Source: an uncultured Planctomycetales bacterium (GTDB lineage: Bacteria > Omnitrophota > Gorgyraeia > Zapsychrales > Fredricksoniimonadaceae). From it: a stretch of 57,459 nucleotides of DNA. Under the pieces are notes generated by a model, which worked only from the letters and a program-made list of their open reading frames with translations, searched no databases and was not told where the DNA came from. Shown piece by piece: positions 1,152 to 18,041 of this stretch (its first letter is position 1; every line of letters starts with the position of its first letter). The position numbers were made by a program, and so were the translations under genes. The DNA lies in contig CAZKUL010000001.1 of NCBI GenBank assembly GCA_964555945.1, positions 1 through 57,459 on the forward strand, read 5' to 3'.

Positions 1152-1237
1152 GGCAATGATAATACCATAATCTAAAATCTTGTCGATAAGTTGTAATACT
1201 CTGGGAATGCCTTAATGGTTCTTGCTGCAGAAAACGA

Positions 1238-1555: not shown

Positions 1556-1575
1556 ATCTTATCCTTTCCAATTTT

Positions 1576-2334: not shown

Positions 2335-2346
2335 AAATACTCCGAC

Positions 2347-3615
2347 CTATCGATTCCTCAACGCTTCTGTAATTACTAATCGTGATGCCCTATATGCAGG
2401 ATAAAAAGCAGATAGCCCTCCTATGAGTATTGAAAAAATAAACGTGGAAAATAAAATTCTGGGGACAATCATAGGGTGAGACAACCATCCGACATTTCCT
2501 CCTGGCGGCGGGGGCATAGTAATGCCAATACAGGACACTATACGCACGATTGCACACCCTAAAATAACACCCAGAACGCCTCCTATAAACCCTAATCCAA
2601 TGCCCTCATAAAGAAATAGGACAACAACCCCTTTACTTCTGCTCCCCATAGCCATGATCGTTCCAATCTCACTGATCCTTTCCATCACTGACATACTCAT
2701 GGTGTTAAAAATACTCAAAACAACTACAATAAATATGATCACTTTCATGATCAAATAGAATTTCTTAAACAAATTAACAGTTTGTGTATAGAATTCCGTC
2801 AGTTCATCCCATGTCTTCATTTCTAAATCAAAATGCTTTTCTTGGAAAAGGGATTTTAATTTATTCTTAACTTCTTGTGTGTCGTCAGTATGATGCAGCT
2901 TTATCAACAAAGATTGAACAGATTCGGTATTAAGAAATTTTTGTGCTGTTTCCAAAGGCATTCTTAAAAAAAATTCATCAAAGTCTTTAGAAGATGTATA
3001 AAACACACCCCTGATCTTCATATCCAACGCTGTGGGAGAACCATCAACAGTATTCGTTAATAACGTAACAGTCGAATGAGCCTTAGCATCTATGCCAGCA
3101 GCAAGCCCTGCGCCTAAAATAACCCCATACTCATCATTACTATCAAGGCCTCGACCAGTCTTTAAAGTGGTCACCCCCTGCTTGACTCCTTCTTTATATG
3201 CTTTTCTCAAATCTGCTACTGCTTCTTTCGACAAAGTCCTTTCATAGCGAGGGTCCACCCCTTGTCCAATAAAAGAGACTGTATTGTTCCCCGTACTTAA
3301 AAGGCCGGAAAATTGAATGCGCGGCGTCACATAATTAACTTCCGGCAATTGACGTATTACCGATATTACTTCACCACTATTCTCAATTAAGTAATTAAAA
3401 GGGTCCGTCCTCCCTTTTTGATTGAATCCTATTTTATAAACTTGAATATGCCCGGTTTGCGCTTCAATAAAACCTTCTCTTAATTGTAAAAAGACATCTT
3501 CAAAAAAACCTCCTATAAAAATAATAGCCACACAACCAAAAACAATCGTCGAGATGGTTATTAAAGATCTCGTTCTATGACGGAAAATATTGCGGACGGC
3601 TAATTTCAAAATCAT
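2347..3615 (-). CDS. ABC transporter permease, FtsX/MacB-type with large periplasmic domain
   Basis: N-terminal TM, roughly 250-aa periplasmic domain, then 3 C-terminal TMs (FtsX fold). Start moved to MILKLAVRNIF (ATG 3615), which overlaps the ATPase stop as TAATG. Confidence 0.8.
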   Translation of the reverse strand: MILKLAVRNIFRHRTRSLITISTIVFGCVAIIFIGGFFEDVFLQLREGFIEAQTGHIQVYKIGFNQKGRTDPFNYLIENSGEVISVIRQLPEVNYVTPRIQFSGLLSTGNNTVSFIGQGVDPRYERTLSKEAVADLRKAYKEGVKQGVTTLKTGRGLDSNDEYGVILGAGLAAGIDAKAHSTVTLLTNTVDGSPTALDMKIRGVFYTSSKDFDEFFLRMPLETAQKFLNTESVQSLLIKLHHTDDTQEVKNKLKSLFQEKHFDLEMKTWDELTEFYTQTVNLFKKFYLIMKVIIFIVVVLSIFNTMSMSVMERISEIGTIMAMGSRSKGVVVLFLYEGIGLGFIGGVLGVILGCAIVRIVSCIGITMPPPPGGNVGWLSHPMIVPRILFSTFIFSILIGGLSAFYPAYRASRLVITEALRNR

Positions 3616-4283
3616 TATTTTATTTCCCCATCCCAAATCTTGACGACACGGTCTGCCTGATCTATTATCTTTTGATCGTGCGTTGAGAAAATGAACGTGG
3701 TTTTATTTTCCCGATTCCTCTTTTTCATCAATGCAATGATCTCCTCACCTGTCTTATGGTCAAGGTTAGCTGTCGGCTCATCAGCCAATATAAATAAAGG
3801 GTCACGAACAATAGCTCTTGCGACAGCTACCCGTTGTTGCTGCCCCCCGCTTAATTCCAGGGGCTTATGTTTTGCAAAATCTGACAACCCAACCATAGAC
3901 AAAGCTTCTTCGGCCTTTCTTCTTTTTTCTATCAGAGACATTGGTTTGAATAAAAGAGAATATTCAACATTTTCAATAGCGGTCAGCACAGGGAAAAGAT
4001 TGAAATTCTGAAAAACAAAACCGATCTTCTGGGCCCGGACATCGGCAAGTTCATTAGGGGTCATGTTTATAATCTGTTGCCCGTCAACAAACACTTCCCC
4101 TGAACTCGGTTTATCAATACATCCCACGATATTAAGAAGAGTTGTTTTGCCGCTGCCTGAAGGGCCAGCTATAACCAAAAACTCTCCCTTATTGATTTTG
4201 AGATTGACTCCCTTTAATACTTCAACAGATATTTCATTCAAAGAGTAATCCTTAAATAAATTATTTACTTCAATAAGATGCAT
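3615..4283 (-). CDS. ABC transporter ATP-binding protein (LolD/MacB-like)
   Basis: Walker A GPSGSGKTT, ABC signature LSGGQQQRVAVARA, Walker B FILADEPT. Confidence 0.9.
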   Translation of the reverse strand: MHLIEVNNLFKDYSLNEISVEVLKGVNLKINKGEFLVIAGPSGSGKTTLLNIVGCIDKPSSGEVFVDGQQIINMTPNELADVRAQKIGFVFQNFNLFPVLTAIENVEYSLLFKPMSLIEKRRKAEEALSMVGLSDFAKHKPLELSGGQQQRVAVARAIVRDPLFILADEPTANLDHKTGEEIIALMKKRNRENKTTFIFSTHDQKIIDQADRVVKIWDGEIK

Positions 4284-4312: not shown

Positions 4313-5671
4313 CTATACTATCGTCCGGGTAACCACTCCCAGAGCTTCACTCCATAATGTATCTGAAGTATGGATCATGTCTGTTACTTCGGTCATTGAC
4401 TTAACAAAATAATCGAGCTGGTCAGACGTCGTGACCAAAGGCGGGACGACCTTAAGGACCATAAAATCATTGCCGCAGATCTGAGTTAAAATTCCCTTCT
4501 CTCGAAAAAGCTGCATAACCAAAATCTGGCCGAAAATTGCAGGATGAATATGTTTGATAGTTTCAAAAGATATCTTACGGCGCAATTGCTTTGGTGCCTG
4601 CCACTCGATCCCGGTGAACATCCCTATCCCACGAACGGTCTTAAACATCTCATATGGGGCCAGAGCCGTACTCAGACGTTCCCGCATATTTGCTGCTAAA
4701 GCGGCACTTCTTGAGCCCCATCCTTCAGTCTCCAACACATCGAGCGTGGCAAGTACCGCACGCATGGATAGGACATTTTCACTAAAAGTCGAAGCATGAA
4801 TATTGGCTCTTTTTAAAGAACTGTAAACTGCATCTGAAATCTTTTCTGACATCAAAACTGCCCCAACTGGCACAAAACCTCCACTCAAGGCCTTAGCTAA
4901 GACAACCATATCCGGCTGGACATTATAATGATGAGCAGCCAAAAACGGTCCTGTTCGCCAAACGCCTGTCTGTACTTCATCAAGTACGAAAAATGTCCCA
5001 TAGCGATGACATAATCGTTGAACTTCTTGTAGATAATTCCCCTCCGGCAAAAGAATTCCGGCTTCAGACTGCATAGGTTCAAGGATAAAGGCAGCAAATT
5101 TTTTGGTCTTCAATTTCTCTTCTAAGGCCTTTAGATCATTAAAAGGAATTGCTTCTGTATCCGGCAACAAAGGGCCAAAACCTTCCCGCCACAAAGGATC
5201 ACCCATCAATGACAGAGCACCACAAGTCAATCCATGAAAAGCACCATGGCAATAAAGCAATCCAGCTCGCTTGGTATACGCCCTTGAGAATTTGATCACA
5301 ATCTCAACACCTTCACTGCCGGAATTGCAAAATACGACGCGCTTCAACTGCCCGCCAGACAACGCACATAGACGTTGAGCGGCCATCCCAGCCAATTCCG
5401 GCACATGGCTCTGTAGCATGACCGGACCTTTCCGATCCAGCTCATTTTTTAAGGCAGCAATAATCGATGGATGGTTGTGACCTGCATTGTACACACAAAA
5501 ACCTGACAAGAAATCCAGGATACGACGAGCATCAGAAGTAAATAACTCCGTTCCTTCGCAACGCTCATACTGAACGTTCATCTGCAAAAGATCTAAAAGA
5601 CGCACCCACTGTGGATTGATATGCGAAGCATATGCACCCGCTTTTGATCTCTCCGATACAGCTTGTTCCAT
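4313..5671 (-). CDS. class-III PLP-dependent aminotransferase (acetylornithine/putrescine aminotransferase-like)
   Basis: 452 aa with SGSEG, DEVQTG and PLP-lysine context VLAKALSGG. AGGGAG Shine-Dalgarno upstream. Confidence 0.85.
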   Translation of the reverse strand: MEQAVSERSKAGAYASHINPQWVRLLDLLQMNVQYERCEGTELFTSDARRILDFLSGFCVYNAGHNHPSIIAALKNELDRKGPVMLQSHVPELAGMAAQRLCALSGGQLKRVVFCNSGSEGVEIVIKFSRAYTKRAGLLYCHGAFHGLTCGALSLMGDPLWREGFGPLLPDTEAIPFNDLKALEEKLKTKKFAAFILEPMQSEAGILLPEGNYLQEVQRLCHRYGTFFVLDEVQTGVWRTGPFLAAHHYNVQPDMVVLAKALSGGFVPVGAVLMSEKISDAVYSSLKRANIHASTFSENVLSMRAVLATLDVLETEGWGSRSAALAANMRERLSTALAPYEMFKTVRGIGMFTGIEWQAPKQLRRKISFETIKHIHPAIFGQILVMQLFREKGILTQICGNDFMVLKVVPPLVTTSDQLDYFVKSMTEVTDMIHTSDTLWSEALGVVTRTIV

Positions 5672-5692: not shown

Positions 5693-6256
5693 TCAACTAT
5701 TCATAAATCCAATGTTATACTGCACAGCAACTTCATCACTCACATGAATAAGCCCCAAAATACTAGGGGGCTTGAGTCCATAGTCTTTTAAATGAATAAG
5801 CATTTGCCCCTCACACATAAGGGTATCCCCCTCCATATGACCTTTTGATATCAGTGTTACAGGATGAGAAATGTTATGCATGGTCATAATGCCTGTGAAT
5901 TTAATCTCCCCGACTTGATTTTCAATAATTTTCGTAATATCCGTATCATTAAAAACGAAATGAATCTGTGGATATAGAGACGCATTAAACATCTGATACA
6001 TATTTTTATCACGCCCAGGTTCATCTGTTGTAAAACTAGCAACATCTACATCGACAAAACCTTTCGCTAAATTTAGTTTTTTCTCAAGAATTCCAGATAA
6101 TTTTCGTGCCGATCCATTAAAATCATGCAAGGTTGATTTACACATAAAACCGAGCCTACTTTTTTCTGACACAACATGCCATTGTCCAGATGCTTGAACA
6201 TATCCGCCACCAAACACAAATAATATAAATAAAAAAATCTTAAGAAATCTCGACAT
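5693..6256 (-). CDS. YceI-family periplasmic lipid/polyisoprenoid-binding protein
   Basis: 187 aa with a signal peptide and a YceI-like pattern (SRLGF..KSTLHDFNGS..., TDEPGRDKNM, HNISHPVTL). First gene after motif copy 1. Confidence 0.7.
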   Translation of the reverse strand: MSRFLKIFLFILFVFGGGYVQASGQWHVVSEKSRLGFMCKSTLHDFNGSARKLSGILEKKLNLAKGFVDVDVASFTTDEPGRDKNMYQMFNASLYPQIHFVFNDTDITKIIENQVGEIKFTGIMTMHNISHPVTLISKGHMEGDTLMCEGQMLIHLKDYGLKPPSILGLIHVSDEVAVQYNIGFMNS

Positions 6257-6349
6257 AAAAATTCTCCTTATAAGTTAACTTATTACAGCTTATCAATTGA
6301 TGGATATTTGATGTAGAGAAAAGCTATTGTGGAAGCACAAATGAAGGAA

Positions 6350-6393
6350 GAAAATTGCAGTTATGGACTTAAACCCTGCAAAATTTTTCAGGG
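6350..6393 (-). promoter_or_regulatory. triple-TGCA promoter/operator module, copy 1 (upstream of the YceI-ABC-OMP operon)
   Basis: Minus strand reads CCCTGAAAAATTTTGCAGGG-N13-CTGCAATTTTC. It shares core sequence and 10/21-bp spacing with copies at 14220, 17996 and 20412. Confidence 0.6.
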
Positions 6394-6412
6394 ATGGGGC
6401 TTGTTTAAAATT

Positions 6413-7153
6413 TTAAGGTTTTGATATATAAAAAGATGCTAGTATTCTTCTATAGAAAGGATTAACGACCTTGATATAAATATCCTTTCGTCGTCTTTCA
6501 GAGGGACGCTCAATACTCACATGTGTCAAAAAGTGTTTACTAAATCGCAAGTCAGGCATGTTTATTTTATTTTGTAAATCAATCCATTCTTGCGAAGACA
6601 AGGCAGCCAAAATTGATTTAAGATATTCTTCCTTCATCGTTCTATTGTAATTGATACCAAGGATATTTACACAAATGGCGTTCATGAATTTTGAATGTCT
6701 GACTAGATCCCTGATGATGATTGCCCCATCGATCTTCACAACGCGTTTTATTTCAGAAAGCATCTCTTCAGGCTGAGGCAAGTGATGGAGCATATTTTGA
6801 CAAAAAACAGCGTCAAACGTTCTATCATCAAAGGGCAGCCCTTTCGCATCTCCTTTAATAAAATTAATTTTGTTCGAAACCCCCTCCCTAGATGCATTGC
6901 GGGATGCAAATTTAAGCATCTCATCTGAAAGGTCAATAGCAGTAACCTGAACATTGGAGGTGTTCTTGGCGACCAATATAGCATCCCAACCCGTACCTGT
7001 ACCGATTTCAAGAAACTTCCCTTCAGAAGGACTAAGATTTATCACAGTTTCTGCAAAGCCTGCATGAACTATATTCAAATATCTACCTACAACCAGATCA
7101 TAGGCAACCACTTCTTCTGTAGAAGTCATGACTTCTTTTTTAAAAATTCTCAT
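6413..7153 (-). CDS. class I SAM-dependent methyltransferase
   Basis: 246 aa with SAM motif I LEIGTGTG and post-I acidic residue. Last gene of the T3PKS operon. Confidence 0.8.
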   Translation of the reverse strand: MRIFKKEVMTSTEEVVAYDLVVGRYLNIVHAGFAETVINLSPSEGKFLEIGTGTGWDAILVAKNTSNVQVTAIDLSDEMLKFASRNASREGVSNKINFIKGDAKGLPFDDRTFDAVFCQNMLHHLPQPEEMLSEIKRVVKIDGAIIIRDLVRHSKFMNAICVNILGINYNRTMKEEYLKSILAALSSQEWIDLQNKINMPDLRFSKHFLTHVSIERPSERRRKDIYIKVVNPFYRRILASFYISKP

Positions 7154-7179
7154 ATAGTTACATTTTTAATTTAAAATAA

Positions 7180-9636
7180 TCATGTTTTTTGAAAATTCAT
7201 CCGCGACTGCCATATAAAGCAAATTGTTAAATACAAAAAAGATGCAATTAACAACAAGGAAGAAAAACCAATAAACCTACTTAAAAAAATACTCATAGCG
7301 CTACCGACAATGGTCATATAGCCATTAAACCCCCAAGCCCAGGGGATTAAGTTTCTTTCGTAAACACCAAGACTTTTTAATCCTTCCGGAAAAAACATTC
7401 CTAGAAAGAATCCAATTGGTAAAATTAACACCAAGGATATCATCAATTTAAAAGGTAAATGCATCGACAAACAGTGCTGAATTAGCCAATGATTGAAGAA
7501 AAAATATAAATTTAAAATAGAAAATACAATTAAAGATACTCTCTTGATATTTAGATAACCTTGACTAAATAAATAATCTGAACACAAACTACCGATAGCA
7601 GTCGATATCAGCAAGCTCATTAAAACCACAGAAAAAGAATATATAGGATTACCCAATAAAAGTGTCAATGCTTGCATAATGGCTATTTCAGTAAATACAA
7701 AACCAAGACCAATAGTAGAAAAATAGACCAAGAACCGAGAAAGATTTTCTCCAGCAGAAGTTTTTATATTAAATATTAATGGATAAATAATAAGCACAAG
7801 ACCTATGACCAGCAACCCAATGGTAAAAAGCAGCACAGATAAATTAAACACAACCTGCCTAGTCGAATCATTCCAGTTTCCGAATATGACTTTCTTCCAT
7901 AGGTCTTTACTAAAGATACTCTGTATAAGAAATCCATTATCAATAAAGGGAGCATTATCCGTAGGTATCGATAAATCTTCATTGTATTGGTAGCTGGCAT
8001 CTTTAAGAAAATGATTCAGATTCTTGCTTTTTAATATATTCTCAAATAATTTGAAATCTTTATAGGTATAAAAAGGATTATAAATACTCATCCATCCCAT
8101 ACGAGATACATTTCTCTCAACTATAGAAACTTCATCTCTGGAAAAATCAGTATTTTTAATCAATAAGAATAAAGCATCTGTGCCGAAAAACATCTTCTTT
8201 TGAGTTATGCCATCTTTCACATCCTCCTGGGGGGCTATAACAATTACCTTATTAGCAACATGATCATATCCTAGCTCCTCCAAAGCCGCACGAGCCAGAG
8301 CTGTAATCTTTAGCTTTCTGCCGTAGGCAACACCTATTGTTCCACCTGGATTTAAATGCTTAAAATAGCTCTTGAAAGCCTCTTTTGTATATAGATATTG
8401 AGTTGTAGCACCGGAAACCCCTAGGTATTGGGAAGCTGAAGCCCCTCCGTATGAAAGAATGATGGAATCGAATTTTTTATCTATTGACTCAACATAACTA
8501 CGCCCTTCCTGCACAATCAAATGAACATTTTTCTTAGCAAAGAAATCAGTTAAATGATATCCTTCAACATCTTTTGCCATCTTGACTACAATTGGATTTA
8601 ACTCAACCCCCGTAATATCCGATATGCCTTTGGAATAACTATAGGCCTCTACCATATCCTTCCCTGCTCCAGCCATTAAAATTAGGATGTCCTGAGGATT
8701 TTTTAATAAAAAACCTAATGTTGTGGGCTGAAAATAACTAAACAATTTTAAATAAAAAGGATCTTCTTTCATAAATGGGTAAATATATCCTTCCCCATTG
8801 ATGATAGAAAACGCATAAATATTATGATTACTCTTTGTTGTGCTATCGACAAACAATGAAGCTCTTGAATATGCATTCCATTGATGCCATGATTCCTTAA
8901 AATCCATACCTTTTATTTTAGTGACATCAGCGATTTTCATTTTAACTTCAAGAAAATCTGTTTTAATATTAATGAGCAAAATAGTTACACAAGTTAACAA
9001 GAAAAATACAGCCGTTATTTTTCTCCATTTATCTTCATAAGTTGCCAATAATAAAATTATTAAAAAAGAAAAAATGGCCAATAAGATTAAAACCGAACTC
9101 AACTGAAAATAATTTAAACTAAAAGTACCAAAAATGCACCCGATTGAAGCCCCTAATAAATCAAAGAAATATATCCTGGAGGTATCTTTTGAATAAAATT
9201 TATAAATAAGAGAATAAAGTACACCAAGACAAAAAAAGATAATGGTAGAAATTAAACCAACCGTGAGTGAACTGCTCATTGTTTTTATTAAAAGTCGGTT
9301 CCAATAAACATCTCCCATTTTCAACGAATTTATGCCCCCAAATTCTAATCGCGCATTTACGCAATGAAAATTACTTATTGCCATGGTAAAAATAAGTAAT
9401 AAAACTCCTAAAAGGCAAAGATATTCAAAAGCCTTTGATTGAAGCCCTTCAACTGATTCTTTAAAATAAAATATGGACACAAATATCCCTGCTAAACTTA
9501 AACCCAAGAATGCGAAAGATATGGCAAAAAATGGAGAAAAGAAGAGTGCGGATAGCAAAACAGCTAATAACAATTCTAAAGATAAAAAAATAAAACTTAG
9601 AGAGAATGTCAGTAAATAAACTGAATTTGAACTCAT
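7180..9636 (-). CDS. polytopic membrane protein with embedded spermidine-synthase-like (SAM/dcSAM Rossmann) domain
   Basis: 818 aa. About 7 N-terminal and about 6 C-terminal TM helices flank a soluble domain with ILILMAGAGKDMVEA...GVELNPIVV, resembling fused MFS/spermidine-synthase architectures. Confidence 0.6.
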   Translation of the reverse strand: MSSNSVYLLTFSLSFIFLSLELLLAVLLSALFFSPFFAISFAFLGLSLAGIFVSIFYFKESVEGLQSKAFEYLCLLGVLLLIFTMAISNFHCVNARLEFGGINSLKMGDVYWNRLLIKTMSSSLTVGLISTIIFFCLGVLYSLIYKFYSKDTSRIYFFDLLGASIGCIFGTFSLNYFQLSSVLILLAIFSFLIILLLATYEDKWRKITAVFFLLTCVTILLINIKTDFLEVKMKIADVTKIKGMDFKESWHQWNAYSRASLFVDSTTKSNHNIYAFSIINGEGYIYPFMKEDPFYLKLFSYFQPTTLGFLLKNPQDILILMAGAGKDMVEAYSYSKGISDITGVELNPIVVKMAKDVEGYHLTDFFAKKNVHLIVQEGRSYVESIDKKFDSIILSYGGASASQYLGVSGATTQYLYTKEAFKSYFKHLNPGGTIGVAYGRKLKITALARAALEELGYDHVANKVIVIAPQEDVKDGITQKKMFFGTDALFLLIKNTDFSRDEVSIVERNVSRMGWMSIYNPFYTYKDFKLFENILKSKNLNHFLKDASYQYNEDLSIPTDNAPFIDNGFLIQSIFSKDLWKKVIFGNWNDSTRQVVFNLSVLLFTIGLLVIGLVLIIYPLIFNIKTSAGENLSRFLVYFSTIGLGFVFTEIAIMQALTLLLGNPIYSFSVVLMSLLISTAIGSLCSDYLFSQGYLNIKRVSLIVFSILNLYFFFNHWLIQHCLSMHLPFKLMISLVLILPIGFFLGMFFPEGLKSLGVYERNLIPWAWGFNGYMTIVGSAMSIFLSRFIGFSSLLLIASFLYLTICFIWQSRMNFQKT

Positions 9637-10289
9637 AAAGATGCCAACTTGTGAGTCCGTTCGTTTAAATACTCGTATACAGTTGCTAAATCAAATAACT
9701 CAATACAGGCAAGATTATGTTTCTTAAAATATTCTAAAAGGGTATCTTTAGCGAAAACAATATCCGCCTCCTTGGCAGCACAAATGTCCGATCTGCCATC
9801 ACCTATATAAACGATTGGGTTCTGCTTTGAATGGGTATCATCCATAAAATGCACTTTCTTACAATGTGCACAAAATGAACAATTAGGATTTTGATGAGGA
9901 AAAGATGGAAAAACTCTGTCCTTATAAAACTTTAAATGATTAGCATGAATTTTAAAATCTTTAATGCCATTATTCTCTAAAATTATATCAATGACGGGTC
10001 CAAAATTATCACTAACAATACAGGACTCTATTTCTCTGCTTCGCAAAAAACTAATTAACATTGAGAAATAAGGATCGATTTTAACCGTTTTTAAATATTT
10101 AATAAGCTCCTGTCTAGAAATTCTCACCCCCTTCATCTGTCCCCTCAGACACTCTTTGGTACTAATCTCACCTAATTGCCAGTCTTTTTCCAAAACCATC
10201 CAGTCATCACTAATTGAATAACGCTCAATCATTTCATTTAGAACATCACCCTTAGTCACAGTATTGTCAAAATCAATGAAAACACGCAT
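9633..10289 (-). CDS. HAD-IB family phosphatase (MtnX-like)
   Basis: DxDxT motif at the N-terminus (FIDFDNTVT), GDGRSD motif, Cys-rich insert CSFCAHCKK. ATGA overlap with the downstream gene. Confidence 0.7.
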   Translation of the reverse strand: MRVFIDFDNTVTKGDVLNEMIERYSISDDWMVLEKDWQLGEISTKECLRGQMKGVRISRQELIKYLKTVKIDPYFSMLISFLRSREIESCIVSDNFGPVIDIILENNGIKDFKIHANHLKFYKDRVFPSFPHQNPNCSFCAHCKKVHFMDDTHSKQNPIVYIGDGRSDICAAKEADIVFAKDTLLEYFKKHNLACIELFDLATVYEYLNERTHKLASL

Positions 10290-10299
10290 ATGATTTATC

Positions 10300-11079
10300 C
10301 TATCTAGCTTCTTGCATGAAATGCACTAAAGGCAAAATAATGCATTGTGGAAGAAAACGTACATTTATTGCCATTAACCTATTTAAAAAACCATGAACGG
10401 CAACAGTTTGTCCTTGTAACATCACCTTATACCCATAATGAGCAACCTCCTTAGGATCAGGAAGTGTTTGACCGTTTGTTAAACGAATTTCTTGGGGGAA
10501 GGTCGATATTTGAAAATTAGTTGCTGTTGGTCCGGGACATAAACATGTGACACTTACTCCAGTACCCTTTAATTCCTCAGAGATTGCTGATGAAAATGAC
10601 AGAATATATGCTTTTGTGGCATAATAAACAGACATTAAAGGACCAGGCTGAAAAGCCGCCGTTGAAGCCACATTCAATATTTTCCCTTTTCGGCGTTTGA
10701 CCATTCCAGGCAAAAAGAGTCGTGCTAAATTCGTCAAAGCAACAATATTTAGTTGTAACATTCGACCTTGCTTTTCCAAGTTTGAATCAACAAATTGCCC
10801 CCAGTCTCCTATTCCGGCATTATTTATGAGAACATCTACTTCTAAATTATTCCTTTTGATCTGTTCATAGACATACCCACAAGCCCCAGACTTCGATAAA
10901 TCACAAGCAATGACGTACACTTGGACTTTGTAAGTTAAGTATAAATAATCCCTAATTTCATCCAATTTAGATTTAGTGCGGGCTATAAGAATAAGATCGT
11001 ATTTATTCTCAGCTAATATTTTGGCGAATTCAAACCCTATACCATTGGAAGCCCCTGTGACAAGAGCTATTTTACTCAT
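10300..11079 (-). CDS. short-chain dehydrogenase/reductase (SDR)
   Basis: TGASNGIG cofactor motif, NNAG, catalytic YATKAY (YxxxK). Start moved to MSKIALVTGAS, which overlaps the stop of the upstream small ORF (ATGAGTAA). Confidence 0.85.
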   Translation of the reverse strand: MSKIALVTGASNGIGFEFAKILAENKYDLILIARTKSKLDEIRDYLYLTYKVQVYVIACDLSKSGACGYVYEQIKRNNLEVDVLINNAGIGDWGQFVDSNLEKQGRMLQLNIVALTNLARLFLPGMVKRRKGKILNVASTAAFQPGPLMSVYYATKAYILSFSSAISEELKGTGVSVTCLCPGPTATNFQISTFPQEIRLTNGQTLPDPKEVAHYGYKVMLQGQTVAVHGFLNRLMAINVRFLPQCIILPLVHFMQEAR

Positions 11080-11197
11080 TCGTATCGCCTGCATTGAGAG
11101 TTTCTTGACCATAAATACCCATCACAGACGCTAAAACAAGAACAAATATTGAAAATATAAAAATGATACCTGCTATAGATATGATTGCTAATTTCAT
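11072..11197 (-). CDS. 41-aa single-TM peptide (unannotated small ORF)
   Basis: AAAAGGAGACGAT-ATG Shine-Dalgarno. Product MKLAIISIAGIIFIFSIFVLVLASVMGIYGQETLNAGDTNE. Sits between two operon genes with its stop overlapping the SDR start. Confidence 0.45.
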   Translation of the reverse strand: MKLAIISIAGIIFIFSIFVLVLASVMGIYGQETLNAGDTNE

Positions 11198-11210
11198 ATC
11201 GTCTCCTTTT

Positions 11211-11963
11211 TTATTTCTTACCAATTTGTTGGGCAACCCCGCCTAACATATAATGCCTGTCATAAATATTTTTAAAACCTTCCCTAAACATCATTTGCAT
11301 AATTTCTTTGGAATCTGAGAAATATCTATTGGATATGCTTAAATAAGCAAAGGAATTATATTCATTACGATGAAAAAAAACCTTTCCCAGCCATGGCATT
11401 AATCTTTCATAATAAATTTGATAAAGAATTTTCTGCCATTTGCCTTCCGGCTTTCCTAAATCTAACGTGGTAAATATCCCGCCTGGTTTTAGTACCCGAT
11501 GCATTTCTTTAAGACCCAACGAAATATCCTTTAAATTACGAAGGCCAAAACACATCATAATGGCATCAAAGGTGTTGTCCTCAAATGGCAATTCCAAAGC
11601 GCTGGCCTCGTAAAAACTGATATTATTTAATTCCAGCTGATTGACCTTATTCTTGGCTAACGATAACATCTCTTCTGCAACATCTACCGCATCAATATGC
11701 AACCCCTTGCATCGCTGACTCATATAAATGGCCATATCCCCGCTTCCGGTACAGACATCCAACACCCTCATGCCCCGCTTTAAATTTAAACTACTAATAG
11801 AGGCATCTCTGTACTCTTGCTGCTGGCCTAAAGAAATAACATCATTAAGTTGATCGTATTTAGGAGCTAATTGATTAAAAAATAATTTGTTAGCTTCTTC
11901 CCAGGAATCTGTATGAAAATACTTATCAAAACCAACCTGTTTCATTATTTCCATATCTTTCAT
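11211..11963 (-). CDS. UbiE/MenG-type SAM-dependent methyltransferase
   Basis: LDVCTGSGD motif I and a UbiE-like N-terminus (FDKYFHT..). Start placed at MKDMEIMKQV after the AAAGGGA Shine-Dalgarno, 13 nt past the PKS stop. Confidence 0.75.
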   Translation of the reverse strand: MKDMEIMKQVGFDKYFHTDSWEEANKLFFNQLAPKYDQLNDVISLGQQQEYRDASISSLNLKRGMRVLDVCTGSGDMAIYMSQRCKGLHIDAVDVAEEMLSLAKNKVNQLELNNISFYEASALELPFEDNTFDAIMMCFGLRNLKDISLGLKEMHRVLKPGGIFTTLDLGKPEGKWQKILYQIYYERLMPWLGKVFFHRNEYNSFAYLSISNRYFSDSKEIMQMMFREGFKNIYDRHYMLGGVAQQIGKK

Positions 11964-11976
11964 AGCAATCCCTTTC

Positions 11977-13011
11977 CTATTCTGACCAGCGTAAACAGGC
12001 CGCATTTACACTAACCCCTGCCCCATAACTAACCATTAACGCAGGTGTTCCATCTATAAATTTTGTCGTATCCATCCATCGTTTTAGGATAAATAAAACA
12101 CAGGGGGACGACATGTTTCCATATTCAGAAAGAACATAACGGCTTGCCATTAGAGATGTAGAGTTTATATTTAATTCCTGTTGTAAGGTATCTAAAATCA
12201 ACCGCCCACCAGGATGAAAAACTAAAATATCAGGCAATTGAGTTATTTGCATCCGTGCCAAAAGTTCTTTAACACCTTGGGCTACAATTTGAGGGACATC
12301 CTTTCCTAAAACATTGTTCAATCTGGAATTGACAGTCTTGAATCTCAATTGTTCTCTGTGTTCTGGCACCAGCAAACATCCATGCCGTTCTAATTGCCAA
12401 CCTGGTTTTTTACAATTAGTAACTATGCAAGCGGCTGCCCCATCCCCAAAAATGGAATTTGATAGTATTAAATCAATAGCTTCCCCATGAACAAAAGTTG
12501 CAGACGACACTTCAACCGCAATAAATAAAACATTTGCATTTTTCTTCGTTAATAAAAATTGATCGGCAATACGTAATCCTGGCACCGCTGCACCACATCC
12601 GTGACCAACAACATCCAGTATGAATATGTCTGGACTGATGCCCAATACTTCCCCTACATGCGATGTTAATCCAGGGCACAAATAGCCGGTGCACGTTGTA
12701 ATAATTAGTCCATCAATTTGCCCAATCCCAAGGCCTACGGCTTTAAGGCATTTTTGAGCAGCTTGGACAGCCAACTCAGTTGCCATTTTTTCAAATCGAA
12801 AGACAGATTCATCGCAATTCTCAGTGGCTAACACCTCCATACTATCTAAAGCAAATGTCCGGGAACGAACTCCATCGTCAGAAAGGAAGCGATTATAGAA
12901 TTTCTTACTTCGCTCAGAGTAGTTTTGGAACCTCATTAATTCGATTAACTCTTTTTGATCCTTGCGTAATGAAGGATTTGCCGTTTCTACACAGGTAATT
13001 CTAGACTTCAC
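11977..13011 (-). CDS. type III polyketide synthase (chalcone-synthase superfamily)
   Basis: 344 aa with Cys-His-Asn triad contexts VGHGCGAAVPG, VFHPGGRLILD and YGNMSSPCVLFIL. Confidence 0.9.
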   Translation of the reverse strand: MKSRITCVETANPSLRKDQKELIELMRFQNYSERSKKFYNRFLSDDGVRSRTFALDSMEVLATENCDESVFRFEKMATELAVQAAQKCLKAVGLGIGQIDGLIITTCTGYLCPGLTSHVGEVLGISPDIFILDVVGHGCGAAVPGLRIADQFLLTKKNANVLFIAVEVSSATFVHGEAIDLILSNSIFGDGAAACIVTNCKKPGWQLERHGCLLVPEHREQLRFKTVNSRLNNVLGKDVPQIVAQGVKELLARMQITQLPDILVFHPGGRLILDTLQQELNINSTSLMASRYVLSEYGNMSSPCVLFILKRWMDTTKFIDGTPALMVSYGAGVSVNAACLRWSE

Positions 13012-14149
13012 TTAATACCCCCTTCGCATATACAATCTTGTTTTTTGTAACCCTTGGGCGAGAATAGCTCATCGCTGTTCGCCTAAACATCTTATTGATA
13101 TCTAAAAAACGAATTATCGCATCTGCAACCCAAGGAAAATGTGCAACACGACCAAATAAATCAGCCAGACGTCGTTGTTCCCCGAAATGCTTCTGATATT
13201 CATCAGTGTATGCCTTAAGCCTTTCGGCGTCATGGTTATATGTCGTTATTGACTGAGCTAATAATTGACCGCTTTGTAAAGCCACACTGATTCCGACACC
13301 CATCACGGTATCAATAAACGCAGACGAATTACCGACACGCCATATACCATTTTCATAATGAACAATTGAATGTCGTACCTGAATTTGAATAGCCTTCCAA
13401 GGAGATACCCTTGTGGCCCCAATCATTACATTCTGCAAATGTGAGCTCTCCTTGATCCAACCCATCAGCACCTTTTCAGGATCTTGCCCTTTAGCTTTAA
13501 AATATTTAGAGTCTACTACATAACAGACATTGACTTGGTTCTTTTCAAATGGATTGATACCAACATGCCCGCCCTCACAGCAATGAAGCATCACCCGTTT
13601 AAATGATTGAGGAATCCCCTGATAGATGGCGCAAATACCAAATTGAATTTTTGTTAATTTTACCGATGGAGAATGCTGGCCACTAGCATCAATAAGATGG
13701 CGAGTTCGCAAATTAAATTCTTTATTATTTCCATAATGGTCAACCGTTACTTCAAATCCGTTGCCATTGTTGTATATATTCCGAGCCTGAGCCCCCTCAT
13801 ACACCTCAATGCCCATTGCCTTAACACGATCTAACAATAGCGAATCAAATACCTTTCTACTTACCCCTAATGCTTCACCTTCTATCGGTATGACTGTACT
13901 TGCCCCCTTAGAGGATGTAAGTAACGACTCCTCAATAACGCGAGCCCCTTCTTCCAAAAGTTTTGACCAAATCCCTAAATCAAATAACATTGCTTTATTT
14001 TCAGGACCAATAAAACCACCGCATGTCTTGTGCCGAGGGAATGCCGATTTATCAATAATAACAACCTTCCATCCACGCTTCGCTAAACCTAAAGCACAGG
14101 ATGTCCCAGCTGGTCCTGCGCCAATAATTAATGCTTCAACTGTTGTCAT
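13001..14149 (-). CDS. FAD-dependent oxidoreductase/hydroxylase (geranylgeranyl-reductase-like fold)
   Basis: N-terminal dinucleotide fold IIGAGPAGTSCA...VVIIDK. 382 aa. First gene after motif copy 2. Confidence 0.8.
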   Translation of the reverse strand: MTTVEALIIGAGPAGTSCALGLAKRGWKVVIIDKSAFPRHKTCGGFIGPENKAMLFDLGIWSKLLEEGARVIEESLLTSSKGASTVIPIEGEALGVSRKVFDSLLLDRVKAMGIEVYEGAQARNIYNNGNGFEVTVDHYGNNKEFNLRTRHLIDASGQHSPSVKLTKIQFGICAIYQGIPQSFKRVMLHCCEGGHVGINPFEKNQVNVCYVVDSKYFKAKGQDPEKVLMGWIKESSHLQNVMIGATRVSPWKAIQIQVRHSIVHYENGIWRVGNSSAFIDTVMGVGISVALQSGQLLAQSITTYNHDAERLKAYTDEYQKHFGEQRRLADLFGRVAHFPWVADAIIRFLDINKMFRRTAMSYSRPRVTKNKIVYAKGVLSEV

Positions 14150-14219
14150 GAAAACAGTTTATCAAGAGGCCAAGCACTTCAGATAGATGAAAATCATGAT
14201 AAAGACAAAAATTAGGGAA

Positions 14220-14263
14220 GAAAATTGCAGATTCAAACAAAAACTATGCAAAATCTTGCAGGG
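14220..14263 (-). promoter_or_regulatory. triple-TGCA promoter/operator module, copy 2 (upstream of the T3PKS operon)
   Basis: Minus strand reads CCCTGCAAGATTTTGCATAG-N13-CTGCAATTTTC, with TGCA cores starting 10 and 21 bp apart. Lies 70 nt upstream of ATG 14149. Confidence 0.6.
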
Positions 14264-14303: not shown

Positions 14304-16244
14304 TTAAAAGCCAAACATATGATCTAGACTGAAAGATTTATCACCTTTGATTAGTCCATGATAGCCGAACAATCGGCAAGTTGTGTCACGTATAATAATA
14401 TACGAGTCTCGACCGGCACGGATGCGCTCTTCTTGGGAAAACATTTCGTTGTAACGCCAAAGCAAGGAACCGCTGCAGGCAATATTCACCGTCTTTTTAA
14501 TAATTTCATTTCCCTTTGCATCTGACAAGATCAAATCAGTTTCAGACTGGGTATGCCATGTGGTTGAGGCTGGATAAATCAAATGACATAACGTGTCTAT
14601 GCCTTCATCACGGCCCAGACGCAAGAAAAGACGCGTACTTAAACCTGGCGGACGACCCGCATAAGACTGTGGTTCATTTTTGTAGACCAATACTGTATTA
14701 AAAATATGCGAGCCGAAGCTGGTTTCGGAATTATGCCCGCTTTTAGTATCTTCGTAACGCATCAAAGCATGCAACCAACCATCGCCCTCACCACCTTGAG
14801 AAAAATCATAAACCAACTCCAAATGACCAAAACCTCCGGGGAATTCTTTTTCAGAACGCTTTCCCAATAAGTTATTGATATTAAAATCTTTGATATTACT
14901 GCGGTTTAATATGCCAAGAGAGTATTTCCCTGCTTGCTGTCCTTTACTGTTATAAACGATTAGAGTCAACGGAAAATTCTCCTGGCAGGTTGACATTGGT
15001 GTGGGCAGCATGATGTTTTTAAATCGGCCAATGGGTAGGATGGGAGCCGGTAATATATAACCCTTACCCATTACTTTAACTAAGTCGGGAATGCCAGGAT
15101 CAGACTTCAAATCAGTACGTTCGACATTGGTGTGCGCAATCAGGCGTTTGCCTTTAGCATCGATAACTTCATAACGTGGCCGCACAAAATGCCGCCCAGC
15201 ATGGACTTCAAACTGCTGCGGCCACCTGGCCTTTGGAAATAAAATAGCCACATCTATCGCACAAGTCGCAAAAGCAGCAATTGGTTTATCGAAAGCAACA
15301 ACATCGTCAGAACCTATTAAGTTCAAACCAATACCAGATGCAGGGATCAGACAGGGATGGCTATTTTGGACCCAAAGTAAAACCTGCTCCCCCTCACGAG
15401 GAGCAGGAAGGCCTGCGTAAAGATCAGCGGGCCAGGAATTGGCATCATGAGTGCAGGAAAGGACAGAGTCATCGTTGCCATAGGTATCTAACGCATATTT
15501 GACGATATCATGACCGGCGATTCCCGTAAAATGTACAAATAAATTTCCAGTAAAACTTTTCAATTTAAAGCGTTGGCTTATCTCAATACTATCCAGGATG
15601 ATAGTATGAACGCATTTTTCAAGCTTTTCATTCCATTGTGCCAATACGCGGCCATCTTTGTCAAACAAACTGCACCATAGCCCAACATTTTTAGGACTGT
15701 ATCCTGCCCAATAATTGGCAGTGACTAAGCGTGTATGATGCCCCAATTCTTCCCGAAAAAAAACAAAATTGGTAGCGAAATTCAAACTGTCAAGATAGTT
15801 TCGGGAATTTGTAAGAAATTCATCCGGCAAACGCGCATCGTCAAAAGAAAAAACCTTTATCCCTTTTGGCAATAGATGCTGAATTTGAGCAATCAAACGC
15901 GTGGAATCAAAAGCTGTAATAAAAATAACATCCGCATCCATATTTTTAAAATCAGTAATAGGCTCTGTATTTCGACCTAGGAGCTGTTTGCCGATATCAG
16001 TGACGTTCTGGACAAAAACACTCATAATTTTTAACTGTGAAATATCATAAAGAGCTTCAAATTCCGCAGCCTGCCCCATCGGGTCATAGACAGCAACTCT
16101 GCCAAAAGACGACAAGAAATTGATCAGATTGAGCATTTTGAAGGAAGTTAAAGGATGTCCCAGCGCCTTAAAAAGGACTGAACCTCCTGCGGCATTGCTG
16201 AATGTTTTGACCTTAAGAAGTTTTTCTTGAGATAATGTCTGCAT
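14304..16244 (-). CDS. conserved-looking 647-aa soluble protein of unknown function
   Basis: Long uninterrupted ORF. True start is taken as MQTLSQEKLL (ATG 16244, AAGG 8 nt upstream, 7 nt after the ELM1-frame stop). The first 41 codons in the ORF track overlap the ELM1 reading frame. Confidence 0.7.
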   Translation of the reverse strand: MQTLSQEKLLKVKTFSNAAGGSVLFKALGHPLTSFKMLNLINFLSSFGRVAVYDPMGQAAEFEALYDISQLKIMSVFVQNVTDIGKQLLGRNTEPITDFKNMDADVIFITAFDSTRLIAQIQHLLPKGIKVFSFDDARLPDEFLTNSRNYLDSLNFATNFVFFREELGHHTRLVTANYWAGYSPKNVGLWCSLFDKDGRVLAQWNEKLEKCVHTIILDSIEISQRFKLKSFTGNLFVHFTGIAGHDIVKYALDTYGNDDSVLSCTHDANSWPADLYAGLPAPREGEQVLLWVQNSHPCLIPASGIGLNLIGSDDVVAFDKPIAAFATCAIDVAILFPKARWPQQFEVHAGRHFVRPRYEVIDAKGKRLIAHTNVERTDLKSDPGIPDLVKVMGKGYILPAPILPIGRFKNIMLPTPMSTCQENFPLTLIVYNSKGQQAGKYSLGILNRSNIKDFNINNLLGKRSEKEFPGGFGHLELVYDFSQGGEGDGWLHALMRYEDTKSGHNSETSFGSHIFNTVLVYKNEPQSYAGRPPGLSTRLFLRLGRDEGIDTLCHLIYPASTTWHTQSETDLILSDAKGNEIIKKTVNIACSGSLLWRYNEMFSQEERIRAGRDSYIIIRDTTCRLFGYHGLIKGDKSFSLDHMFGF

Positions 16245-16251
16245 ATTGATT

Positions 16252-17199
16252 TTACCTTTCTTTCTCTTGAAAGCATTCATAAACAAAATTTGCCGCCTTG
16301 CTTGTCTCATCCAGCGGAATGTTCTTCCAGATTTCAATTTCACCTGAAAAAAAACGCGCTTTACCATTTTGTATTAAACCTTTACAAAATTGTTTATCAC
16401 GATTTCCGCCATTAGGCAGTTCATATATATAAACCGGCTTACCAGTCGATCAAGCTTCCGAAATCATGGAGATGGAATCACTTGTAACAACAATAACATC
16501 CGCAAGGGCCAACAAACCAAAATATGGATTTTCTCCTTTGCCATCCCAAATGTAAGAAGCAATCCCAGCGAGGTCTGGTCTCAATATGGCCTCATTTTCC
16601 TTCCCTGTCCGTCACGAAAATGAAATGGCAAGTCCGCCTCCTGTAATTGCTACTGAAGCCAGAAGTTTTTTTGCAAAATCATGGGCTAATACATCAGAAA
16701 AACCCTGATGCTTGTTTTTACCTCCGACCAACACACAAATCAAAGGACGCGGTAATGACGACAGCAAAGGACGGAAATGCATGGAAGCGCCGTTGAGCCT
16801 TTCAGTGCTGACATGATGAATAGCTCCTTGGGTAACAAAGACATTTTTCCCGCGCATTTTGTCGTGCGTAGGAACAATCACAACGTCAAACTGTTTGGGA
16901 TCTATAAAAAGGTCTTGAATATGGACAGTGAAGGTTTTATTTTTACTTGCACGACGAATAGCCACTGAAACAGGACCGCTTTGACGTCCGCAAGAAATTA
17001 GCATATCCGGCCATGGAGCAATAAGGCCACGCTCAACTGGTGAAAATAAATGCAGGAGACCCTTAGGTCTTTTAATCTCCTTTAAAATATATGGAAGTCT
17101 TAATGCTTGAGCCAGACCAATGGCCTGGTTCTGAAGGCCGACTAAGTCTTCAGTCACGATCCAACATGATGATACCTGCAAATCAGATTTAATGACCAT
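16252..17199 (-). pseudogene. ELM1/GtrOC1-family putative glycosyltransferase interrupted by two in-frame TGA codons
   Basis: A single 315-codon frame runs from 17199 to the TAA at 16252-16254. TGA at 16612-16614 falls at the first R of the family motif SRRT (..AISFS*RTGKE..). TGA at 16450-16452 falls at the conserved C of SEACxTGKPV (..MISEA*STGKPVYIY..). There are no frameshifts. Confidence 0.7.
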
Positions 17200-17211
17200 T
17201 TTTACCGCTTT

Positions 17212-17874
17212 TTAATAGGATGAAAACATTTTGAAAATGGCGGACCATCGGTGCCGATTTTGCTCATGATCGACGAATTTCTGATGAGTCACCCAGTTCA
17301 TCTGAATGACCTTACGTGTGCCTTCAAAAGGCAGATGGCCATGATAAGAATGATCGCTTCGCCTGAAAATAAGCAGGGTACCCACATTAGGAGATAACTC
17401 GGTTTTGATATCCTCAATATTATTACTGTTAAGTAGACGAAGACGGCCTGCGGCCTGATTTTCCCAGGAAGGGTTCATGTAGAGAAGCACAGTAATAATC
17501 TTGCTTTCCGAATCTGTATGTACTTGACCGTCCTTGAGCCTGCATTTGCCGCGGACCGTGAACATTGTCGGTTTACCCTCAAGATCCAGCAAAAATTTTT
17601 TTTCTATGGCGTGCCGGAAAGCATCCGAGTTTAATTCATTAATCAATTGCATAAATTCGCTGCTGCAAGACACAGAGGATAAAGGAAAACTTCCGGCAGC
17701 CTTGACTTTCGGATAAGCGTCTATCAACTTTTCTTTCCAATCCTGTAGGATAAAATCCAAAACGACCACATATTCATAGGGTGATGTTTCCAATTTCGAG
17801 TTATAAATCTTATTAACGTCAATGATAGACAAGTTCGACTTGCTTTCTACTTGTGTTTTGATTGGCTGGTTCAT
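17212..17874 (-). CDS. 2OG-Fe(II) oxygenase superfamily protein
   Basis: HxD...H iron triad context (QVHTDSE ... SYHGH) and RxS-like 2OG site. Start set at MNQPIK after the GAGGAA Shine-Dalgarno; the ORF track start 17922 is also possible. Confidence 0.6.
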   Translation of the reverse strand: MNQPIKTQVESKSNLSIIDVNKIYNSKLETSPYEYVVVLDFILQDWKEKLIDAYPKVKAAGSFPLSSVSCSSEFMQLINELNSDAFRHAIEKKFLLDLEGKPTMFTVRGKCRLKDGQVHTDSESKIITVLLYMNPSWENQAAGRLRLLNSNNIEDIKTELSPNVGTLLIFRRSDHSYHGHLPFEGTRKVIQMNWVTHQKFVDHEQNRHRWSAIFKMFSSY

Positions 17875-17995
17875 ATGTCCATTCCTCATAAAGGTATAGT
17901 CTCGGCTTTTAAAAAATGCCATTAAACTATTTTTTTAATATAACTAATTTTTTTAGATCAATTAATACTAAATTCTAGTTAGAGAGAAAATTAAT

Positions 17996-18041
17996 GAAAA
18001 AAATTGCAGATGTGGTCAAAAAGAGTGCAAATTCTTGCAGG
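17996..18041 (-). promoter_or_regulatory. triple-TGCA promoter/operator module, copy 3 (upstream of the oxygenase/ELM1/647-aa operon)
   Basis: Minus strand reads CCTGCAAGAATTTGCAC-N16-CTGCAATTTTTTTC with 10/21-bp core spacing. Starts 6 nt after the regulator gene stop. Confidence 0.6.

Follow-up and report, generated by a model that had tools for sequence, protein, structure and literature searches.

A type III polyketide synthase operon with a candidate dedicated regulator in an Omnitrophota-type bacterium, and the membrane lipid it may produce

What is made by a bacterial operon in which a type III polyketide synthase (PKS) is joined to a flavoprotein, a methyltransferase and five further genes, and how far does the system to which it belongs extend? 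We consider this question for contig CAZKUL010000001.1 of assembly GCA_964555945.1, from an uncultured Planctomycetales bacterium placed by GTDB in the Omnitrophota. The whole stretch analysed, referred to here as ‘the window’, is 57,459 nucleotides (nt) long, and the operon occupies positions 6413-14149, on the minus strand. We propose that its product is a hydroxylated, C-methylated membrane lipid derived from an alkylresorcinol, and that the operon is the biosynthetic arm of a regulon under a two-component system. We give this reading a probability of about 0.55. It is supported by the family assignments and an intact PKS catalytic triad, by the combined chemistry of the flavoprotein–PKS–methyltransferase trio, and by a gene order conserved down to 40% PKS identity. 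The eight tightly packed genes, taken from the list of open reading frames (ORFs) and assigned with Pfam and NCBIfam, are, in order of transcription:

13001-14149, minus strand: flavin adenine dinucleotide (FAD) flavoprotein of 382 amino acids (aa), of the geranylgeranyl (GG)-reductase / LodB-QhpG / halogenase-like group; proposed ring hydroxylase (FAD_binding_3)
11977-13011, minus strand: type III PKS, 344 aa (Chal_sti_synt_N/C)
11211-12005, minus strand: UbiE/MenG-family S-adenosylmethionine (SAM) methyltransferase (PF01209, Ubie_methyltran, 192 bits)
11072-11197, minus strand: 41-aa single-helix membrane peptide, with an AAGGAG ribosome-binding site
10300-11079, minus strand: classical short-chain dehydrogenase/reductase (SDR) with a hydrophobic C-terminal tail, of the lipid-carbonyl reductase type (adh_short)
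9633-10289, minus strand: MtnX-like haloacid dehalogenase (HAD)-IB phosphatase with a CxxCxxC insert (TIGR01489)
7180-9636, minus strand: 818-aa polytopic protein, a variable accessory gene (weak Spermine_synth match)
6413-7153, minus strand: second class I SAM methyltransferase, of no specific family

A preliminary description of this DNA, made from its letters, had listed these eight ORFs as an operon without a break. All eight are there, with families assigned, and intergenic distances of -29 to +26 nt are consistent with a single transcript. The flavoprotein and PKS genes overlap by 11 nt and the PKS and methyltransferase genes by 29 nt, and the stop codon of the 41-aa ORF overlaps the SDR start (ATGA). 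The first three chemistries had been likened to those of srsABC, and a flavoprotein, a type III PKS and a methyltransferase are indeed co-operonic here.

The pathway that we have in mind runs as follows. The type III PKS would take a fatty-acyl starter from primary metabolism and build on it a long-chain, alkylresorcinol-type ring; the flavoprotein would hydroxylate this ring; and the UbiE-family enzyme would C-methylate the resulting quinol. The product would then be a membrane lipid of the alkyl-methyl-benzoquinol/quinone type, comparable with the polyketide quinones of actinobacteria. The SDR may reduce a lipid or ring carbonyl, and a secreted YceI protein, encoded beside the operon, may bind the lipid in the periplasm. 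A regulator combining a REC domain with a Fis-type helix-turn-helix (HTH) would turn on four transcription units through a conserved palindrome-plus-box, in a regulon that would span roughly 372-20458. The PigE-like aminotransferase, the HAD phosphatase, the 818-aa protein and the second methyltransferase, which are clade-specific, could decorate the lipid (e.g. by amination and then N- or O-methylation) or act on some other envelope substrate.

The PKS scores above the cutoff of 27 bits with both of its Pfam domains (PF02797, 65.1 bits; PF00195, 48.6 bits), and its triad C139/H266/N299 aligns with C164/H303/N336 of chalcone synthase and is unchanged across 29 PKS homologs. The identification as a type III PKS operon, made at the outset from the contexts of the three residues, is thus borne out. 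F224 stands at the cavity position of chalcone synthase G256 and tetrahydroxynaphthalene synthase (THNS) Y224, which may or may not be that of ArsB W281, where a bulky aromatic residue is expected in alkylresorcinol-forming (aldol-cyclising) enzymes such as ArsB, SrsA and HidC. The nearest named homologs come from metagenome-assembled genomes (MAGs) of Candidatus Omnitrophica/Omnitrophota; the sole close species representative by PKS (85% identity) carries the label ‘uncultured Planctomycetales’, and a scan of JGI metagenome contigs returned three short close relatives only. No gene for starter supply had been seen in the operon, and acyl-CoA ligase, acyl carrier protein (ACP) and fatty acid synthase are all absent from the window; the starter in this organism is presumably drawn from fatty-acid synthesis. 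Among the related loci (designated L001 and so on), L001 has its SDR gene followed directly by genes for a FabF-type ketosynthase (552 bits, exceeding the cutoff) and an ACP, and L172 has a gene for an AMP-binding enzyme upstream of the PKS.

Does the flavoprotein hydroxylate the ring? It is matched best by the family models for the GG-reductase superfamily (103.8 bits, under that model's cutoff) and for the halogenase CmlS. QhpG and LodB, whose aromatic substrates are hydroxylated to quinones, score about equally, and the UbiH family reaches 43 bits against a cutoff of 225. The two best models, together with nearest solved structures that are flavin halogenases, would suit an enzyme that reduces the side chain, in the manner of MenJ and GG reductase, or halogenates the product, so that an alkylresorcinol or pyrone, saturated or halogenated, would form in place of a quinone. 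We think this very improbable, given the sub-threshold GG-reductase score, the comparable scores of QhpG and LodB, and the fact that SrsC-type enzymes in such cassettes give alkylquinones. The 382-aa translation, read directly, does not contain the WxWxIP motif of halogenases, and identification as a halogenase was dropped for this reason. The protein does contain a PRHK(T/V)CG motif, shared with flavoproteins of other type III PKS loci.

Ring hydroxylation is favoured, moreover, by what takes the flavoprotein's place elsewhere, a pattern for which a reductase or halogenase would hardly account. L001 has no flavoprotein gene; directly upstream of its YceI–PKS genes lies a divergent gene of the peptidase-U32 family (8155-9384), and another 22 loci, distantly related, encode homologs of the U32 protein a short way 5' of the PKS (e.g. 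L047, 8051-9232; L082, 8120-9301). Scored at no more than 3.5 kb from the PKS gene, the flavoprotein occurs in 79 of 169 type III PKS loci, the U32 protein in 24, and both in none (Fisher p 1e-7). The 73 loci with complete flanks divide into 40 with the flavoprotein, 15 with the U32 protein, none with both and 18 with neither (Fisher p 7e-7). By their record titles, the U32 loci belong mainly to Desulfobacterales, Sedimentisphaerales, Chitinivibrionales, Victivallales and similar MAGs, and the FAD loci mainly to Verrucomicrobiota, Burkholderiales and Nitrospira; the former are mostly anaerobic lineages and the latter mostly aerobic ones. In ubiquinone synthesis, likewise, rings are hydroxylated either by the O2-dependent enzymes UbiH/F/I or by the O2-independent UbiU/V. 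The resemblance points to ring hydroxylation as the step that the two kinds of locus share, and so to a quinol or quinone as product; by this analogy the exclusivity supports ring hydroxylation toward a quinol, and suggests that the U32 gene supplies an O2-independent alternative to the flavoprotein. In our literature search, no publication connected U32 proteins to type III PKS genes.

The methyltransferase that follows the PKS, whose start may be the ATG at 11963, passes the UbiE/MenG subfamily model TIGR01934 (205.9 bits, cutoff 158.35) and misses the equivalog-level model for bifunctional UbiE, NF001244 (205.4 bits, cutoff 216). The methyltransferases of four loci with the gene order of the hid or srs operons are generic class I enzymes that do not pass TIGR01934. 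No homolog of those from L020, L022 and L062 was found near the PKS in window-type loci, and no homolog of the UbiE-type enzyme in loci with the hid gene order. The two srs-like loci L049 and L062, with generic methyltransferases, have PKSs 37-38% identical to that of the window. The SDR has mycolate reductase as its best model (171 bits, under its cutoff), and the 41-aa peptide has a 52-aa homologous ORF in L003 and L004 and none in L010.

How much of this arrangement is a unit can be judged from its relatives, which were compared by exact-protein look-ups and by tblastn of the window proteins against 170 fetched loci. The preliminary description had called for such a check, and the gene order recurs in three independent contigs (L003, L004 and L010), so the arrangement is more than chance. 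The stable unit consists of a histidine kinase, a REC+HTH_8 regulator, YceI, the flavoprotein, the PKS, the UbiE-type methyltransferase and the SDR. It is kept in L005, L170 and L171 (57, 62 and 60% PKS identity, respectively) and in the Omnitrophota-type loci L012, L013 and L093 (40-42%). By tblastn, the SDR is linked to the PKS in L001, L005, L013, L093, L170 and L171; in L012 no SDR homolog was found within 10 kb downstream. Five genes had been described as an unusual extension of the trio. One of them, the SDR, is a constant partner, and the only constant partner among the five, down to 40% PKS identity; three others, for HAD, the 818-aa protein and the second methyltransferase, occur in the closest clade only (PKS identity at least 78%) and are dispensable, clade-specific additions. 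Positions 6413-14149 are, at the same time, too small as a unit: YceI, the PigE-like aminotransferase and the histidine kinase/response regulator pair (HK-RR) travel with the PKS in relatives, and in the window they share a conserved, putative operator with the operon. These additional features are:

20411-20458, minus strand: operator/promoter element of the m122-HK-RR genes
19898-20266, minus strand: m122 membrane protein, part of the HK-RR unit
18588-19901, minus strand: histidine kinase (best models AtoS and ZraS)
18047-18586, minus strand: response regulator, REC+HTH_8 (Fis-type HTH), no AAA+ domain
17995-18041, minus strand: operator/promoter element of a 2-oxoglutarate (2OG)-oxygenase module
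14216-14262, minus strand: operator/promoter element of the PKS operon, comprising the palindrome CCTGCA-N6-TGCA (14247-14262), a spacing of 16 nt and the box CTGCAATTTTCTTCC (14216-14230)
6346-6392, minus strand: operator/promoter element of the YceI-aminotransferase unit
5693-6256, minus strand: YceI-like periplasmic lipid/polyisoprenoid-binding protein with a signal peptide (PF04264)
4313-5671, minus strand: class III omega-aminotransferase, closest to the PigE catalytic domain and putrescine aminotransferase

The HK-RR pair immediately precedes the PKS cassette in L003, L004, L005, L010, L012, L013, L090-L093 and L170, and lies about 7 kb downstream of it in L171. In the window, four minus-strand transcription units, those listed above, are headed by the same element, with the consensus (C)CCTGCA-N6-TGCA(GGG), 16-17 nt, followed by CTGCAAT(T)TTTCTTC; by chance one would expect 0.29 occurrences of the box and 3.05 of the palindrome. 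The exact element occurs once in each of nine clade members (L003, L004, L005, L010, L090-L092, L170 and L171), degenerate copies occur in L012 and L013, and 165 other loci have no exact bipartite copy. Eight of the nine separate the regulator gene from the first gene of the cassette (that of L171 is upstream of YceI); the L010 copy stands upstream of its m122-HK-RR genes. Weak -10-like hexamers are found some 30 nt past the box. What is conserved is the sequence and not its complementarity, and the neighbouring regulator combines REC with a Fis-type HTH and has no AAA+ domain; we therefore read the element as the regulator's operator on activator-dependent promoters. It is probably, on this showing, the operator of the adjacent REC+HTH_8 protein.

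Other identities were considered for these parts and set aside. A sigma-54 promoter does not fit: the GCA-to-GCA spacing is 10 nt and not 11, TG stands where the -24 GG should be, and the regulator has no AAA+ domain. Nor does a terminator hairpin, since the right arm is degenerate (TGCATAG) in the closest clade and sequence rather than complementarity is conserved. Consensus scans for sigma-70 promoters and terminators returned chance-level results. The quinone-sensing RegB/RegA (PrrB/PrrA) system matches the regulator's architecture and is ruled out by the kinase's topology: in place of six transmembrane helices, direct reading of the translation gives two hydrophobic segments around about 150 residues that we take to be periplasmic.

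YceI (PF04264, 68.9 bits, cutoff 23.7) heads the operon in L005, L012, L013, L092, L170 and L171; in the window it has moved to the downstream side. After it, in the window as in L003 and L004, comes the aminotransferase, whose best matches, PigE (382 bits; PDB 4PPM, 251 bits) and putrescine aminotransferase, indicate an omega-transaminase for aldehydes and primary amines. The aminotransferase gene changes place from locus to locus: it is upstream in L001, between methyltransferase and SDR in L005, and in L010 flanked by HAD and the 818-aa gene. Such varied placement speaks for a link in function, not simply for synteny. Beyond it lies a set of genes that may serve in handling or export of the product, with membership of the system suggested by position (372-4283, minus strand):

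3615-4283, minus strand: ATP-binding cassette (ABC) ATPase
2347-3636, minus strand: MacB/FtsX permease
1576-2334, minus strand: LolA-like protein
1238-1555, minus strand: secreted 105-aa CxxCH cytochrome c
372-1151, minus strand: outer-membrane barrel of the MetA/phenol-degradation type

The set is partly conserved beside the operon in L003 and L004, both of which keep the CxxCH protein and the MetA-type barrel. In three separate lineages, resistance-nodulation-division (RND) efflux genes adjoin the HK-RR/PKS cassette; those for membrane-fusion protein, pump and outer-membrane factor lie at 21183-26858 in the window, 1-3505 in L005 and 12150-15242 in L171.

Is the lipid, then, meant for the respiratory membrane or for the outside? 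It might be a metabolite of the kind made by the hierridin (hid) and srs operons, i.e. a methylated, hydroxylated alkylresorcinol exported to the outer membrane or the medium with no electron-carrier role, and its function might be that of a protective, antibiotic or membrane-stiffening phenolic lipid. We regard such a fate as doubtful, and such a function as equally so. Homologous planctomycetal and cyanobacterial cassettes yield alkylresorcinols and hierridins of unknown or antibiotic function, and an exported product would suit the signal peptide of YceI, the ABC/MacB, LolA-like and MetA-type barrel genes after the operon, the small cytochrome c among them, the adjoining RND pumps and a conditional expression through the two-component system. 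It sits less well with a methyltransferase of the UbiE/MenG type, where the hid- and srs-order loci checked have generic ones, with a FAD/U32 exclusivity that parallels quinone biosynthesis, and with the presence of genes for respiratory complexes next to the cassette of three relatives (L003, Rieske/cytochrome b; L170, complex I; L172, succinate dehydrogenase).

The same respiratory neighbours and the UbiE-type enzyme point toward a redox role, as do reported gaps in the quinone pathways of Omnitrophota, whose canonical ubiquinone and menaquinone routes are described as incomplete, and as absent from one respiring class (PMC10066038). In the strongest form of this idea, the cassette product would be a non-isoprenoid polyketide quinone serving as the main respiratory electron carrier in Omnitrophota-type bacteria, which we consider unlikely. 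Were it so, the cassette would also exist in an O2-independent version, with a divergent U32-family hydroxylase replacing the flavoprotein, and anaerobic synthesis of alkylquinones would then be a widespread trait, to judge from the choice of FAD or U32 in over 100 type III PKS loci.

Several points count against the hydroxylated, C-methylated alkylresorcinol lipid that we propose. The chemistry of a product is not readable from sequence, and the PKS, with an uncertain counterpart of the cyclisation-determining residue ArsB W281, may make a pyrone. Among solved structures, those closest to the flavoprotein are of halogenases and geranylgeranyl reductases. The U32 assignment, on which the analogy with ubiquinone hydroxylases draws, is weak (Pfam 31 bits; PDB 5D88, E=2e-4), and the link between operator and regulator is drawn from adjacency and conservation alone. 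The RND, ABC/LolA-like and outer-membrane-barrel neighbours suit a product made for export no less than one used in respiration, and a simple quinone requires neither an aminotransferase and a phosphatase nor two further transferases.

This last point raises the question of whether the operon is a single pathway. It may instead be composite, the polyketide pathway comprising flavoprotein, PKS, UbiE-type enzyme, peptide and SDR (10300-14149), and 6413-10289 being a separate module on the same transcript, in which HAD, the 818-aa protein and the second methyltransferase act on a polyamine, a phospholipid head group or protein N-termini. We hold this to be quite possible, if short of an even chance. 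L004 is 98.96% identical to L003 over 5,967 nt, from the regulator gene through the end of the HAD gene, and has no 818-aa gene; beyond HAD the identity falls to 78.8%. The change marks a sharp recombination breakpoint inside the operon (L003 13463/13471, L004 5967/5987). In L010 the order differs; as far as its sequence was recovered, to a point within the 818-aa gene, neither YceI nor the second methyltransferase has a homolog there, and the latter is found in the window, L003 and L004 only. The G+C content, 32-34% over 6-10 kb, is about 40% over the PKS. Distant homologs of the 818-aa protein (27-39% identity; Omnitrophota and Chloroflexi) stand alone, no PKS gene being nearby, in what is a very large family, and a fungal protein with seven transmembrane helices and a spermidine-synthase-like domain methylates protein N-termini. 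A single pathway is favoured, on the other hand, by the unbroken packing (gaps of -4 to +26 nt), by the HAD gene, which is found in L003, L004 and L010 and recurs beside the same HK-RR pair in L171, and by L010, where the aminotransferase directly before the 818-aa gene fits amination and then N-methylation of one lipid.

As for what these accessory proteins are, the MtnX-like phosphatase with a Cys-rich insert proposed earlier is upheld by TIGR01489 (112.4 bits, cutoff 81.55), by DxDxT and GDGxSD motifs and by conservation of the CxxCxxC insert; it falls below the MtnX equivalog (80 bits, cutoff 292). The 818-aa protein is predicted to have 13 transmembrane helices, seven before and six after a spermidine-synthase-fold domain (~246-570), and its AlphaFold model, made from 50 homologs, has a pLDDT of 86.8 and a pTM of 0.88. 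Its single-sequence Spermine_synth score (20.8 bits) is below the Pfam cutoff of 22.9. The best Foldseek matches in the PDB are nevertheless all spermidine synthases (E=5e-8; TM-scores normalised to the target 0.52-0.63), and the family profile matches 1UIR, Thermus SpeE, at E=3e-14. The suggestion of a membrane-embedded aminopropyl/methyl-transferase-like fusion thus stands for the fold and fails for aminopropyl transfer, the residues for which are missing. In the 1UIR alignment GGGEG is replaced by MAGAG (Ala324), with loss of the acidic residue of GxG(D/E)G, and IIDLTDP by ILSYGGA, with Ser and Gly for the Asp residues of the DxxDP loop. Loss of that acidic residue was the criterion for ‘methyltransferase, not spermidine synthase’ in the work on NHMT (PMC10349129). 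With the acidic and the catalytic Asp residues missing, aminopropyl transfer appears unlikely, and SAM-dependent methyl transfer more likely than it. The protein is probably a membrane-integral SAM-dependent transferase, and its tie to the polyketide is a hypothesis. The family has 30,941 representatives at E<=0.001 and 6,608, nearly all of about 800 aa, at E<=1e-30; it conserves Y156 and D159, within a predicted transmembrane helix (149-176), and a TDDxPF motif.

Between the regulator gene and the PKS operon, behind the fourth copy of the operator, a three-gene module is inserted (14304-18041, minus strand):

17212-17922, minus strand: 2OG-Fe(II) oxygenase
~16330-17199, minus strand: ELM1-like pseudogene
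14304-16244, minus strand: 646-aa protein of unknown fold, in no Pfam family

The same three genes occur independently of type III PKS genes in L173 and L174. The 646-aa protein, with more than 4,600 matches, shares 55-60% identity with alphaproteobacterial proteins (Pelagibius, Kiloniellaceae), and its gene always follows those for the 2OG-Fe(II) oxygenase and the ELM1-like protein (in the window, in L173 at 9001-10920 and in L174 at 6001-7911). A fold search with its AlphaFold model (pLDDT 86.4) gave only meaningless beta-sandwich matches in the PDB (TM-score ~0.1). The ELM1-like gene is a single frame interrupted by in-frame TGA codons at 16612-16614, in place of an invariant Arg, and at 16450-16452. 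Recoding of TGA is ruled out, as this codon terminates 11 of 50 window genes, so the gene is a young pseudogene or contains two sequencing errors. Elsewhere in the window, 36374-51157 holds a long run of polysaccharide/glycan genes apparently unrelated to the operon (TMEM260-like, DegT aminotransferase, WbqC, GT2 glycosyltransferases, methyltransferases and a split transketolase). Rfam and tRNA scans of the window were both empty.

Type III PKS trios are common in bacteria, and their role is mostly unknown; only in actinobacteria have they been shown to provide alternative respiratory quinones. The locus described here joins such a trio to a quinone-type C-methyltransferase, a periplasmic lipid-binding protein, a dedicated sensor and regulator and a recognisable operator, and so presents it as a defined regulon. 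The mutual exclusion of FAD and U32 genes suggests an O2-independent route to polyketide quinols. If confirmed, this would extend the principle of UbiU/V beyond ubiquinone and help to explain lineages that respire without known quinone pathways. For the 818-aa protein, the operon provides a rare functional context for a very large, uncharacterised membrane family with a spermidine-synthase fold.

How does the system compare with those already known? The trio is a variant of the srsABC/hidABC/pkqABC cassettes, and no categorically new pathway. The version with its own sensor-regulator, operator sites, lipid-binding protein and variable add-on genes is previously undescribed; the searched literature gave no characterised cluster with this gene set, in keeping with the preliminary description. 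The 818-aa protein resembles NHMT (AN4663), a fungal N-terminal histidine methyltransferase, in having seven N-terminal transmembrane helices followed by a spermidine-synthase-fold domain, and in a neutral residue at the acidic position of GxG(D/E)G (Ala324 here, Ile322 in NHMT); the spermidine-synthase-like domain of METTL13 is grouped with NHMT as the closest known to the 818-aa domain. Unlike NHMT, the 818-aa protein is bacterial and has six extra C-terminal helices, and the likeness is one of architecture.

With the ring-modification enzymes of ubiquinone synthesis the system shares a methyltransferase that passes the UbiE/MenG subfamily model, and an either-or of flavoprotein and U32 protein that parallels UbiH/F/I versus UbiU/UbiV. 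It differs in having no UbiA-type prenyltransferase or 4-hydroxybenzoate route, the ring coming from a polyketide, in a flavoprotein outside the UbiH family, and in U32 proteins very distant from UbiU/V and TrhP. hidABC, of the cyanobacterial hierridins, and the planctomycetal methyltransferase–oxidoreductase–type III PKS operon contain the same three enzyme classes as the window, and the hid-order flavoprotein belongs to the same broad family, with a PRHKxCG motif. The PKSs of hid-order loci are, however, only 40-41% identical to that of the window, the gene order is different, and their methyltransferases (L020 and L022, the comparison being with hid-order loci) are generic class I enzymes rather than UbiE-type. 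Hid-order cassettes have no linked SDR, YceI or HK-RR; among operons of the hid/planctomycetal type, a gene for a lipid/isoprenoid-binding protein is reported only for the ‘Saltatorellus ferox’ variant. The two kinds of cassette are distinct systems, since one MAG (CAZASA01) holds both L021, with the hid gene order (40% PKS identity), and L010, of the window type (85%).

The products of the srsABC, hidABC, pkqABC and planctomycetal operons are alkylresorcinols, their methyl ethers and alkylquinones, and the polyketide quinones of actinobacteria are alternative electron carriers. It is srsABC (Streptomyces griseus) and pkqABC (Mycobacterium smegmatis and Streptomyces sp. MNU77) that the window resembles in its content of PKS, methyltransferase and flavin oxidoreductase in one operon, in conditional expression, and in a proposed product class of long-chain alkyl benzoquinols/quinones. 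The likeness is one of gene content; the order is FAD–PKS–methyltransferase in the window and PKS–methyltransferase–oxidoreductase in srsABC/pkqABC, and the window's methyltransferase is of the UbiE/MenG family. To what those operons contain, the present system adds an SDR, YceI, a dedicated HK-RR pair with its putative operator and, often, an aminotransferase, in a host of Planctomycetes–Verrucomicrobia–Chlamydiae (PVC)/Omnitrophota-like lineage.

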